NCBI GenBank assembly: GCA_947038195.1
Contig: CAMQVI010000004.1
Location: 886-64,885, forward strand
Origin: an uncultured Brevinema sp.
GTDB lineage: Bacteria > Spirochaetota > Brevinematia > Brevinematales > Brevinemataceae
Direction: 5' to 3'
Length of the DNA stretch: 64,000 bases
Made by a program: the position numbers and the translations under genes. Positions 494 to 4,858 of this stretch are shown here, in pieces. The notes below the pieces were generated by a model. The model ran no database searches. It worked only from the letters and a program-made list of their open reading frames with translations, and was not told the DNA's origin. Position 1 is the first letter of the stretch. Each line of letters starts with the position of its first letter.

Positions 494-940
494 TTAATTA
501 TGTGTTCCCGTGCTACCAAATCCACCTTCACCTCTTTCTGTAATTGATAGTTCTTCAACAGGTGTGAATTGTGCCTGTAATACAGGGGCGATGACAGCTT
601 GAGCAATACGCATTTCTGGGCTAATCTCAAAATCCTTTCCACTTAGGTTTAGTAAAAGAATTTTAATCTCTCCTCTATAGTCAGCATCGATAGTACCTGG
701 CCCATTAGGGATGATTAGACCTTTAGAGGCTAAGCCACTACGAGCTCTAATCTGCATTTCATATCCACTAGGAATAGCTGAAGACAATCCTGTGGGGATC
801 ATGGCAACTTGACCGTGAGGAATTAATATAGCATTATCTAATAAGGCATATAAATCAGCTCCAGCAGAATCAGAAGTCTGATAGGTGGGTAATTTAGCCC
901 TTGGGTCTAATTTTTTTATTTCGATGGTTATTTGCTTCAT
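494..940 (-). CDS. dut: dUTP diphosphatase
   Basis: 148 aa. Trimeric dUTPase motifs AGADL, RSGLA, GTIDADYRGE and the C-terminal GGFGSTG. Confidence 0.93.
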   Translation of the reverse strand: MKQITIEIKKLDPRAKLPTYQTSDSAGADLYALLDNAILIPHGQVAMIPTGLSSAIPSGYEMQIRARSGLASKGLIIPNGPGTIDADYRGEIKILLLNLSGKDFEISPEMRIAQAVIAPVLQAQFTPVEELSITERGEGGFGSTGTHN

Positions 941-1052: not shown

Positions 1053-3539
1053 TTAAAGAGGTCTTTTCACTTTAAAGAATTTTTCTACACGAGTAAGAAT
1101 CTCTGTGGGGGACAGGTATAAAGAATTAGCGGGTTTGGCTGTTTCTACAAAGTTTTTTCCGTAGAAAGGTTTAGAAAAAATACGCCCATCTAAGACGAGT
1201 AAAATACCTCTATCTTTTTTAGAACGGATGAGTCGACCTATACCTTGTTTGTATTTAAGGACAGCTCTTGGAACTGAATATTCTGTAAAAGAATTTCTAC
1301 CTTCTTCTTCTATGAGACGACAGATGGCTTTAGTTAGAGGGTGGTAAGGACTGTCAAAAGGCAATTTATCGATGATTAATAATCTAAGATGATCCCCCTG
1401 CACGTCTACCCCTTCCCAAAAACTAGCTGTTCCAAAGAGAACACTATAGTCTTTAGCACGCATGGTATTGATGAGGTGCTCTCTAGAGTATTCTCCTTGT
1501 TTAAGGGGATGTAGTCCAGCACTATAGAAATCGTCGCCGAGTACTTCATAAGCCATATTCATAGCTTTACGAGAAGTGAAGAGCAATAAAGCTCCTCCCC
1601 CTGACATAAAGACAGCTTGACGGACTAAATCTAGTTTTTCTTGTTCTTGTTTTCCAGAGGAGAGAAATGATTCGTTTACAACGAGGACTGCCATTTGATT
1701 TTTGTAGTCAAAGGGGCTAGGAAGTACCGCAGAATCGATATTTTTTTCTTCTACATAGTTTAATCCTATACCATCTTTAAAGAAATCAAATTTTTTGTTT
1801 ATAGATAAGGTGGCAGAAGCAAAAATCGTGAAATCTTTAGGTCTGAAAATATGTCTTGCTAAGAAATCTCCGACACTAGCTGGCCCTGCTGAGAAAGTAA
1901 TAGCATTGCCCATCAGTTCCATTTGTTTTACGGCAACAGCATCGGCGTCTAAATTGTTGAAGATTTTTTCGAAAGTTTGTCTCATGTCGTGGAGTGCAGT
2001 GTTATGAATGGCTATCACTTTTAAGATTTCTAATATACGGGCATCAGGGATCGCTTCTTCTGTTTTTTCTATGAGCTTGGTGGTATTTACTTCGATTCGG
2101 CGAATCTCGTCAAATAAAGTACTTAATAAATTTTTGGCAGCTTTCCAATGGGGAGTATTGAGAATTTCTTGATTGATTTCTGTTGATAATTCTACTTTTC
2201 CATGGAGTATATCTCTAAATTGTGATTCTCTGTCTTTTAAGCTCTGAGAAAGAGATAGAATACCATTAGATATGGTCGCAAAAATATCGGATAATTCAGG
2301 GAAACGATCGAGGGCAGATCTATCTCTTAGAAGACCTAATTGTCCAAAAAATCTATCTCCTTTTTGTCTATAAAGACGAGAGAAACGCCAAACAATAGAG
2401 CCAAAAGAAAAACTTTCTGCCATTGATTGTAAGGTAATATTCGATAAGGAGTGTGCCTCATCCAGTACTAAACCAGAGAAATGAGGTATAGTAGGCATAA
2501 AACCATTCTCGTCGTCAATAGCAGCAAGGAGTAAAGCGTGATTCCCTATTAAAATATGAGAAGCTTCTGCAGTCATTCGTGCTTTATAATAAAAACACTC
2601 TGTATAGAAGGGGCATTCTTTTCTAGGGCAATTAGGGGTAGCTGCAGATATTTCTTCCCATAGATCATTGGAGATACGTTCTGGGATTTCGGCACGAAGT
2701 CCTTCTGTAGTGTTTTCAGCCCACGTGTTGATAAGTTCTATTTGGTTAGCTATGCTGGAAGGGTTGTCAAATAGGGATAAGGTTTTGTCTTCTTCTGTTT
2801 GTAATTCGTGAAGATTTTTAGGACAGAGATAATTAGCACGTCCTACAAGAACAGCAAAACGAGGTCTTATCCCTGTAACTCTTTCTACTATAGTAGATAC
2901 TAATTCGGCATCTTTTTGAGCAATTTGATTTTGGAGATTGATGGTGTGAGTCGTTACAAAAACTCTTTTTTCAGATTGTACTGCCCACAAGGCAGCAGGA
3001 ATAAGATAGGCTAAGGATTTACCCGTACCTGTACCAGCTTCTGCCATAAGAATTTGGTCTTCGTTAATGGCGTGGACGATTTTTTGAACTAACATTTCTT
3101 GCTCTTTTCTTTCTTCGTACATACCCATATATTCTGCTAAAAGCCCTTTTTCTTGGAAAAGTCCTACCACTTGATTTTCGGAGAGAAAAACACGAGGTTT
3201 AGGCTTGTAGACGATATTGACTTCAGAACAATCGTTATTAATAATGTAAAAACCTAGTTTTCTAGTAGCAAGGAGGGATGCAATATTGATGTCGGGATTG
3301 GAGGCTCTAAGATCCCCTGATGGGTGATTGTGGATTACGAGATCGCCTTTTAAGCCTTCTGCTAAAGGGGCTGGGACGGATTCTTCGTTGCCGAAGGCAA
3401 TAGCTTCAAACTCAGAAACAATACCCTCTTTATCTACCCAAGCCACAAAAAAAACTTCATCTCCATGATGACTTTCTATAATTTGAGCGATTTCACGTGC
3501 AATATTAGGATGAAATAAGCTAGAAGTGTCTTGATACAC
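1053..3539 (-). CDS. dinG: DinG/XPD-family FeS DNA helicase with N-terminal RadC-like JAB (MPN) domain
   Basis: Walker A AGTGTGKS, DEAH box VLDEAHS, Cys cluster YLCP...NCPRKECPFYTEC. The first ~115 aa carry IHNHPSGDLRASNPD (HNHPSG..S..D). Confidence 0.85.
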   Translation of the reverse strand: MYQDTSSLFHPNIAREIAQIIESHHGDEVFFVAWVDKEGIVSEFEAIAFGNEESVPAPLAEGLKGDLVIHNHPSGDLRASNPDINIASLLATRKLGFYIINNDCSEVNIVYKPKPRVFLSENQVVGLFQEKGLLAEYMGMYEERKEQEMLVQKIVHAINEDQILMAEAGTGTGKSLAYLIPAALWAVQSEKRVFVTTHTINLQNQIAQKDAELVSTIVERVTGIRPRFAVLVGRANYLCPKNLHELQTEEDKTLSLFDNPSSIANQIELINTWAENTTEGLRAEIPERISNDLWEEISAATPNCPRKECPFYTECFYYKARMTAEASHILIGNHALLLAAIDDENGFMPTIPHFSGLVLDEAHSLSNITLQSMAESFSFGSIVWRFSRLYRQKGDRFFGQLGLLRDRSALDRFPELSDIFATISNGILSLSQSLKDRESQFRDILHGKVELSTEINQEILNTPHWKAAKNLLSTLFDEIRRIEVNTTKLIEKTEEAIPDARILEILKVIAIHNTALHDMRQTFEKIFNNLDADAVAVKQMELMGNAITFSAGPASVGDFLARHIFRPKDFTIFASATLSINKKFDFFKDGIGLNYVEEKNIDSAVLPSPFDYKNQMAVLVVNESFLSSGKQEQEKLDLVRQAVFMSGGGALLLFTSRKAMNMAYEVLGDDFYSAGLHPLKQGEYSREHLINTMRAKDYSVLFGTASFWEGVDVQGDHLRLLIIDKLPFDSPYHPLTKAICRLIEEEGRNSFTEYSVPRAVLKYKQGIGRLIRSKKDRGILLVLDGRIFSKPFYGKNFVETAKPANSLYLSPTEILTRVEKFFKVKRPL

Positions 3540-3568
3540 TAAAACTCCTTTGATAATAAAAAAAAAGG

Positions 3569-3592
3569 GGAGAAGATTCTCCCCTTTTTCGT
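3569..3592. terminator. Bidirectional hairpin GGGGAGAAGATTCTCCCC flanked by A-run and T-run
   Basis: aaaaaaaaaggggagaagattctcccctttttcg, lying between the EAL/HDOD gene stop and the dinG start. Confidence 0.6.
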
Positions 3593-3601
3593 TTTTAAGG
3601 A

Positions 3602-4858
3602 TTAAAAATCGTCGGCTAATGTTTTGGAGAATTTGAGAGCCTCTAAAGATACTTCGTTGATAATATCTGGGGTAAGAGCAAAACGTTCAGAATGACTGTT
3701 AATAACATCTACATTACAGCATTCTATAGATTTAGTAAGACTTAAAAGCTCACCTAATTTTCCAGTGCCTTTAAGTAGGGCATCAGAAATAGATTCGGAT
3801 AGATGAAGTTCTTTAACAAGCTCTTCAATAGGGGTGTGTAATAAAGCATCACAGAGAGACAAAAGTCCAACTAAGAAAGCTTCATCTCTTAATTGTTTAG
3901 GAGCTTTAGAATCAGAGGACTTGAGGAGGAGCTCCATTGTTTTACCTCTTTGAGAAGCAGTAAGAAATAAAGGATCATTACGGAGACCAACCTCGCTTTC
4001 GCCATTACTTCTTTGGGAGTATAATAATAAAAGAAACCATTGGGATAAAGATCTAGTACCTAAAAGAGCTATCGCCTGCTTTATAGAGGTGATTTCTTGG
4101 ATAGGGGAAACACTAGAAGAGTTTACAATTTTTAAAAGAGATATAATAAGCTCTGGGTAGAGTTTTATAGTATGTTCTACTTCGTCAATAGAATTCCCTT
4201 GTTGGATAGCACGGATAACAGCTAAAATACCTTGTATGGATGGGCTGATAGCCTTCCCTTCAATAATATCAGGCTTGGTGAAAAAGTACCCTTGGAAATA
4301 CTGGTAGCCGAGATCCATGCATATTTGGAACATTTCTTGAGTTTCTACTTTTTCGGCTAAAAGGGCTACTTTGTAAGGTTTTAATAATGAAGTTTTTTTC
4401 TGCAAGTCTTCTAAAGTGGTGTCCATTACATCTACTTTAACAATCTGAACTTCTTTAAGGATAGGGTCCCAATGTTCTAATTGATCTTCGGTGATAATAA
4501 AATCATCCAAAGCAAAAACGTATGCTTGCTGTTTGAATTTTTTAATAAACCGAACTAACTCTTGGGAAGGTTCTTGTGTTTCAAGGATTTCTATAACAAA
4601 ACGTTTAGGGGGGATGAGATTTAATAATCCCAATCGAAGAATGTCTATCCCTATATTGACAAATCCTCTCTTATTCCCTAATACGTTGTCTACAGACATC
4701 ATGGATAGGGTGTTGGCCACAACGTTAGCAGTCGCCTCTGTGTCGCAGTTAATAGGACTATTGTCCGTAGAACGGAACAAAAGCTCGTAAGCGATAACTT
4801 CCTGTTCTCTGTTAAGAATAGATTGTCTGCCTAGTAAAATATTCATGTCTTTCCTCAT
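3602..4858 (-). CDS. EAL-domain plus HDOD-domain signalling protein (c-di-GMP related)
   Basis: EAL-family motifs YELLFR, LDDF, VKVD, AEKVET, QGYFFTKP. The C-terminal half is HDOD-like. Confidence 0.75.
   Translation of the reverse strand: MRKDMNILLGRQSILNREQEVIAYELLFRSTDNSPINCDTEATANVVANTLSMMSVDNVLGNKRGFVNIGIDILRLGLLNLIPPKRFVIEILETQEPSQELVRFIKKFKQQAYVFALDDFIITEDQLEHWDPILKEVQIVKVDVMDTTLEDLQKKTSLLKPYKVALLAEKVETQEMFQICMDLGYQYFQGYFFTKPDIIEGKAISPSIQGILAVIRAIQQGNSIDEVEHTIKLYPELIISLLKIVNSSSVSPIQEITSIKQAIALLGTRSLSQWFLLLLYSQRSNGESEVGLRNDPLFLTASQRGKTMELLLKSSDSKAPKQLRDEAFLVGLLSLCDALLHTPIEELVKELHLSESISDALLKGTGKLGELLSLTKSIECCNVDVINSHSERFALTPDIINEVSLEALKFSKTLADDF

Follow-up and report, generated by a model that had tools for sequence, protein, structure and literature searches.

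To our knowledge, few bacterial proteins without a known activity are as widespread as RadC. A fusion of its JAB domain to a DinG-type helicase was described by Iyer et al. 2011 (PMC3239186), who pointed out that in closely related helicases a 3'-5' exonuclease takes its place and argued, from this non-homologous domain displacement, for a possible nuclease function of the JAB domain. A 2025 review of DinG helicases (Comput Struct Biotechnol J, PMC11981726, section 3.8) named the subgroup 'RadC-like DinG', presented an AlphaFold3 model of it and noted its similarity to JAMM peptidases. The exemplars given there come from Desulfuromonas soudanensis and Kuenenia stuttgartiensis, the review table contains no Brevinema protein, and the review is explicit that RadC-like DinG is without biochemical or genetic data. 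We analysed a gene of this kind in a 64,000-nucleotide stretch of DNA from an uncultured Brevinema sp. (contig CAMQVI010000004.1; the whole stretch is referred to as the window). The gene belongs to the RadC-like DinG subgroup already described, and both its architecture and the functional inference drawn from it have already been published. We consider it probable that its product is a 5'-3' iron-sulphur (FeS) helicase of the DinG/YoaA type which carries a JAB zinc hydrolase with an intact motif, and which would combine a housekeeping role with delivery of that hydrolase. The gene and its main parts are as follows.

1053..3539, minus strand: complete RadC-like DinG gene (828 amino acids plus stop), from a single open reading frame, an AlphaFold2 model and orthologues
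3195..3539, minus strand: RadC-type JAB/MPN+ domain, residues 1-115, from PF04002, phmmer, AlphaFold2 and Foldseek
3120..3194, minus strand: linker between JAB domain and helicase, residues 116-140, variable in the alignment; close relatives that lack the JAB domain start here
1053..3119, minus strand: DinG/YoaA-type superfamily 2 5'-3' helicase core, residues 141-828, from NCBIfam and Foldseek

The protein shares with the described RadC-like DinG proteins the domain order, the E/HxH/D metal site, the four-cysteine FeS domain, the YoaA-like core and the lack of HolC. An N-terminal JAB domain, a putative E/2H/D zinc centre (predicted), the motor domains with the Arch domain, and a CCCC FeS module were all found. 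The Brevinema clade is set apart from other members by small lineage-specific insertions in motor domain 1 and by an Ala, not a Pro, before S80, and no essential difference from the subgroup was seen.

Identification of the N-terminal domain rests on profile, sequence and structure comparisons. Against the Pfam RadC family (PF04002, cut-off 22.1 bits) the whole protein scored 20.7 bits, just below the cut-off, and the N-domain alone (residues 1-125) scored 26.6 bits, above it; the isolated N-domains of aligned family members matched in 15 cases out of 15. When the N-domain was compared with the PDB using phmmer, the RadC homologue 2QLC was the sole sequence match with E<0.001 (E=7.5e-4). An AlphaFold2 model of residues 1-125 reached a predicted local distance difference test score (pLDDT) of 94.3, and a Foldseek search with this model returned 2QLC first, followed by the Rpn11-like, PfJAMM1, AMSH, CSN5 and BubCD JAMM peptidases. 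An earlier interpretation made from the letters of the window alone (the sequence-only reading) had placed a RadC-type JAB domain at about residues 1-115, and this is borne out by the Pfam match of the isolated domain and by 2QLC as the best PDB match.

3456..3458, minus strand: codon of the JAMM general-base glutamate, Glu28, which is shared by all 43 aligned homologues
3291..3332, minus strand: JAMM zinc motif H70-N-H72-P-S-G-x4-S80-x2-D83, residues 70-83, HNHPSGDLRASNPD, position confirmed by script

An MPN fold bearing the E-x(n)-H-x-H-x7-S-xx-D motif is typical of JAMM/MPN+ isopeptidases, and here the motif is present in the sequence and the fold in the AlphaFold2 model. In the alignment of 43 homologues, E28, H70, N71, H72, P73, S74, G75, S80 and D83 are invariant. 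Among 77 full-length representative clusters from an unbiased phmmer search, Glu28 is kept in essentially all, and about 76 have an intact H.H-x7-S-xx-D motif. From this near-invariance the JAMM catalytic residues appear to be under selection, which bears on the suggestion that the domain could be non-catalytic, serving as a DNA-binding, partner-docking or autoregulatory module in the manner of inactive MPN- domains or of the pseudo-exonuclease of pExoDinG. Such a role has parallels, as MPN- scaffolding domains are common in the eukaryotic complexes that match the fold, and zinc ligands have been lost in some fusobacterial versions (Iyer et al., PMC3239186). The retention of zinc ligands, Glu and Ser together, here and in about 76 of the 77 clusters, would however be unexpected for a pure scaffold, and we regard a non-catalytic domain as improbable.

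The domain has the JAB fold and the HNHPSG-x4-S-xx-D signature in common with canonical RadC/YicR (PF04002; 2QLC), but the fusion has neither the N-terminal helix-hairpin-helix (HhH) region nor the usual length of about 220 amino acids. Whole-protein RadC models failed (TIGR00608, 14.5 against 133.85 bits; NF000642, 18.3 against 180 bits), with only the JAB motif region aligning. Judged by its sequence, the N-domain is a subfamily of its own, found almost only on DinG.

The remainder of the protein is a helicase, the motifs of which were located as follows.

3015..3038, minus strand: Walker A (motif I) AGTGTGKS, residues 168-175, position confirmed by script
2595..2825, minus strand: FeS-cluster module with Cys239, Cys304, Cys309 and Cys315, from the sequence motif; cluster binding is predicted
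2451..2462, minus strand: motif II DEAH, residues 360-363, position confirmed by script
1137..1604, minus strand: Helicase_C_2 domain, residues 646-801, PF13307, 4.1e-39

In Pfam the whole protein matched Helicase_C_2 (4e-39) and DEAD (3e-12). The best NCBIfam model for the core was that of YoaA (NF053712), the HolC-associated E. coli helicase, with 452 bits, followed by ExoDinG PRK08074 (418 bits) and DinG PRK11747 (348 bits), all of them below their cut-offs. The YoaA score (452.5 bits) compares with an equivalog cut-off of 680 bits, and further differences from YoaA are that the latter has no N-terminal domain and that no HolC was found here. In the 43-homologue alignment E167, A168, G169, T170, G171, G173 and K174 of the Walker A region and D360, E361 and H363 of motif II are invariant, as are the FeS cysteines C239, C309 and C315, while C304 is present in most homologues and replaced in a high-GC subgroup. 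The members of that subgroup (P0048-P0052) have Thr or Leu in place of C304 and also long insertions, located in the Arch region and ahead of Helicase_C_2. The full-length AlphaFold2 model (pLDDT 88.5, predicted template modelling score 0.83) gave the E. coli DinG-ssDNA complex 6FWR as its top Foldseek match (E=5e-41, template modelling scores 0.64/0.74, 731 columns superposed), followed by S. aureus DinG, CasDinG and XPD. A complete DinG-type helicase with AGTGTGKS, DEAH and four cysteines had been read from the letters, and we found these residues as claimed, together with the 6FWR match.

Since the PADLOC typeIV_DinG models match the helicase core (best 354.7 bits), the protein could be conceived of as a defence-system helicase, either a CasDinG or another anti-phage DinG, instead of a housekeeping enzyme. 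However, the NCBIfam model of Csf4 (TIGR03117) reached only 111 bits against a cut-off of 400, and the four-cysteine FeS module is intact, whereas CasDinG carries pFeS domains (PMC11981726). The gene lies among EAL-HDOD, dut and obg genes with no cas gene close by, no cas or defence genes recur beside the gene in 79 orthologous loci, and at least 45 of 121 Spirochaetota genomes carry the gene, at a single locus each. A defence role was thus rejected as very improbable on the Csf4 score and the gene context, and the PADLOC matches were taken as generic DinG similarity.

The two halves are encoded in a single uninterrupted open reading frame of 828 codons plus stop (window 1053..3539, minus strand), which starts with GTG at 3539..3537. 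Two features lie immediately upstream.

3545..3550, minus strand: Shine-Dalgarno sequence AAGGAG, 5 nucleotides (nt) from the GTG start, from a reading of the sequence
3561..3590, minus strand: intrinsic terminator of the EAL-HDOD gene that lies upstream, at 21 nt from the GTG, with a 13-pair stem followed by a T-run

From stop to stop the frame covers 877 amino acids, that is, 49 codons are open upstream of the GTG. No earlier in-frame start codon occurs within these 49 codons, so that there is no earlier start through which the N-terminal domain could be bypassed. Orthologues from many phyla are 813-886 amino acids long, and the N-terminus aligns with them from residue 1. That a small JAB gene and a helicase gene had been read as one, or that the start lay downstream, would be hinted at by the terminator just 21 nt before the start codon, and by one locus (L066) that ends after 124 amino acids without an in-frame Walker A, a few other loci also being interrupted. 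Against such an annotation artefact stand the stop-free frame, the good Shine-Dalgarno sequence at the GTG, the alignment of the N-terminus with the orthologues, the confident modelling of the whole chain by AlphaFold2, and an in-frame fusion in 78 of the best 80 species loci; an artefact is therefore extremely improbable. The same data answer the sequence-only reading on two points: JAB domain and helicase are continuous without a break, and the N-domain is translated with the helicase from the GTG with its AAGGAG.

The fusion is widespread. A phmmer search with the N-domain alone against 1.84 billion representatives yielded 497 clusters at E<=1e-3, and most of the 150 listed are 800-920 amino acids long; most of 17 short matches inspected were truncated or frameshifted fusions running into the helicase. 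The closest proteins come from Brevinema metagenome-assembled genomes, with N-domain identity of 59-78% among Brevinema species and of 40-49% to members from Geobacter and Desulfuromonas. A scan for related loci, using one genome per species, found them in at least 346 species. The taxa with the fusion include Spirochaetota, Geobacteraceae/Desulfuromonadales, Sumerlaeota, KSB1, Dadabacteria, Nitrospirota, Acidimicrobiia, Calditrichota, Hydrogenedentes, Fusobacterium and Frackibacter. An in-frame Walker A motif was present 146-173 amino acids downstream in 78 of the 80 best species loci, and the architecture is not a product of chance; these loci had been picked with an HNHPSG pattern, which makes motif conservation in that set circular, but not the in-frame helicase. 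The domain scan and taxonomic survey proposed in the sequence-only reading have given a RadC match above the cut-off for the isolated N-domain and a fusion spread over at least 346 species loci. The fusion is apparently obligate for this JAB subfamily.

A small number of loci depart from this pattern. In two proteins (P0058, 237 amino acids; P0069, 295 amino acids) the JAB domain is C-terminal, after unrelated N-terminal regions, and at L066 (6001-6372), on a complete chromosome of a metagenome-assembled genome, the frame stops after 124 amino acids without an in-frame Walker A. From these three, a few subfamily members may be stand-alone or differently fused.

To find the nearest clade without the JAB domain, the helicase part alone was used as query, and the best 120 matches were considered. 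Nearly all had the length of JAB-DinG proteins, and five JAB-less proteins of about 730-740 amino acids were found among them (P0223, P0247, P0277, P0279 and P0294). They begin exactly at the linker, have their Walker A at residues 52-60, and score as high against the helicase core of the window as the Geobacter JAB-DinGs. These features suggest that the JAB domain has been gained or lost as a module.

These relatives bear on the view that the JAB domain is a nuclease which, through non-homologous domain displacement, has taken the place of the DnaQ-like 3'-5' exonuclease found in ExoDinG of Firmicutes, making the enzyme a helicase-nuclease. ExoDinG (TIGR01407, PRK08074; 9II8/8ZEF for S. aureus DinG) resembles the present protein in carrying an N-terminal accessory hydrolase on a close DinG core, but its accessory domain is a DnaQ domain of RNase H fold and not a JAB domain. 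The core of the window protein scores nearly as high with ExoDinG PRK08074 (418 bits) as with YoaA (452 bits), and the alignments to TIGR01407 and PRK08074 start at model positions 232 and 248, after the exonuclease part; no RNase_T/DnaQ Pfam match was found in the window protein. The displacement argument itself was published by Iyer et al. 2011 (PMC3239186), and the further fusions in which RadC occurs (HhH, primase, ArdC) also have to do with DNA (PMC3239186). The JAB-less relatives that start at the linker weaken the displacement argument a little, and we hold a nuclease to be unlikely, though the foremost of the alternatives.

The preferred explanation, a helicase-tethered zinc hydrolase with a housekeeping role, draws further on the genomic context. 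The source genome is 2.03 Mb and 89% complete, and it contains this gene as its sole RadC-like match and sole Helicase_C_2 (PF13307) match; it is thus, provisionally at this completeness, the only DinG-family helicase of the cell. A PF04364 search of the same 89% complete genome for HolC (chi) gave no match, which is likewise provisional. The EAL-HDOD gene lies upstream and dut (dUTPase) and obg (Obg) downstream, an arrangement that is conserved within Brevinema only. When all open reading frames of the 79 orthologous loci were clustered by similarity, with family annotation for the three flanking genes of the window, no universal conserved neighbour or operon partner emerged across the 79 loci, only lineage-specific sets (Treponema-type, Geobacter-type). 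This points to a stand-alone housekeeping gene and not to a defence or mobile module. A housekeeping rather than mobile character is favoured because there is no lineage-wide neighbour, the gene is single-copy in the genome and no HolC was found, and, as the sole DinG-family helicase among housekeeping neighbours, the gene most likely encodes the general DinG/YoaA-type replication-fork and repair helicase of the cell.

We also considered whether the fusion replaces canonical RadC. The 121 sampled Spirochaetota genomes include at least 45 with the fusion, at one locus each; as lower-bound counts, 25 carry both the fusion and canonical RadC (about 225 amino acids), 20 the fusion only and 60 a short RadC only. 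The pattern is not complementary and replacement was rejected, since with 25 genomes carrying both, fused and free RadC are not simple substitutes.

In the proposed mechanism, the ATP-driven helicase would translocate along single-stranded DNA (ssDNA), carrying the tethered zinc hydrolase with it. It would thereby bring the JAB domain to something attached to, or blocking, the translocated ssDNA, which the JAB domain would then cleave. The favoured target would be a peptide or isopeptide bond, so that the outcome would be removal of a protein roadblock or of a DNA-protein crosslink. Within the overall explanation this choice of bond is tentative, at somewhat short of even chances, and a phosphodiester bond, as the published nuclease hypothesis would have it, is given a lower probability. 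A peptidase is nevertheless somewhat more likely than a nuclease, because every characterised JAB/MPN+ enzyme among the fold matches is a peptidase or isopeptidase, because the JAMM Ser is kept, and because FANCJ and SPRTN provide a precedent.

In eukaryotes, DNA-protein crosslinks are unfolded by FANCJ, a helicase of the DinG family, before the metalloprotease SPRTN acts on them (Yaneva 2023, as referred to in PMC10175854). As would be the case here, a 5'-3' FeS helicase of the DinG/XPD family is combined with a zinc metalloprotease on DNA-bound protein; the likeness is a functional analogy only, and a crosslink role for the present protein would be hypothetical. FANCJ and SPRTN are two separate proteins and SPRTN is a zincin, not a JAB protein. 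It is conceivable, though rather doubtful, that the fusion is the single-polypeptide bacterial counterpart of this pair, in which the motor, moving 5'-3', would meet a protein bound covalently or tightly to ssDNA and unfold it, and the JAB domain would cut it. If so, RadC proteins that stand alone, and that have gone without an assigned function for decades, would be peptidases targeted to DNA.

Several points weigh against a tethered hydrolase of this kind. E. coli mutants in canonical RadC have normal DNA-damage sensitivity (Attaiech 2008, cited in PMC11981726), and a literature search for experiments on RadC or RadC-like DinG turned up none. The substrate is not readable from sequence, and neither a ubiquitin-like partner nor another conserved neighbour that would hint at a peptide substrate was found across the 79 loci in the clustering by similarity, with families assigned for the three flanking genes of the window. 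The 89% completeness of the source genome also leaves the statements on the only copy and on HolC provisional.

By tying the JAB domain to a helicase, the fusion narrows its place of action to ssDNA or a position next to it, and with this narrowing assays of nuclease versus peptidase activity are straightforward to design. The argument was already made in 2011 and 2025, and the gene is a further, well-conserved spirochaete example, not a new idea. Likewise, the suggestion in the sequence-only reading that the fusion could help to assign a function to RadC stands, but is already in print. Its functional ideas are reasonable though not new, and the proposed analogy to exonuclease-DinG is put in nearly the same terms as the displacement argument in Iyer et al. 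2011. The additions made here are that the catalytic motif is near-universal in the clusters, that fusion and canonical RadC coexist in many spirochaetes, and that equally close helicases occur without the JAB domain. The gene belongs to a known, uncharacterised family, and the biochemical question remains a good one.

Some minor observations concern expression and the flanking genes. The intergenic gap before the helicase gene (window 3540-3601) is 62 nt long and is filled by the strong terminator mentioned above. No sigma-70-like promoter was detected in this gap, so the gene may be expressed by read-through of the terminator or from a promoter within the gene upstream. The closest promoter of good quality (4919->4891, 11/12 matches) precedes the EAL-HDOD gene. 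On the other side, the gene after the helicase is dut (494..940, minus strand), which is served by a near-consensus promoter of its own at 989->960 (TTGAAA-18-TATAAT). In E. coli, radC/yicR presumably adjoins dfp-dut. The protein encoded upstream (window 3602-4858) has an HDOD match and aligns to the EAL model only over the C-terminal half of the latter (positions 111-236 of 236), and its EAL domain may be degenerate.

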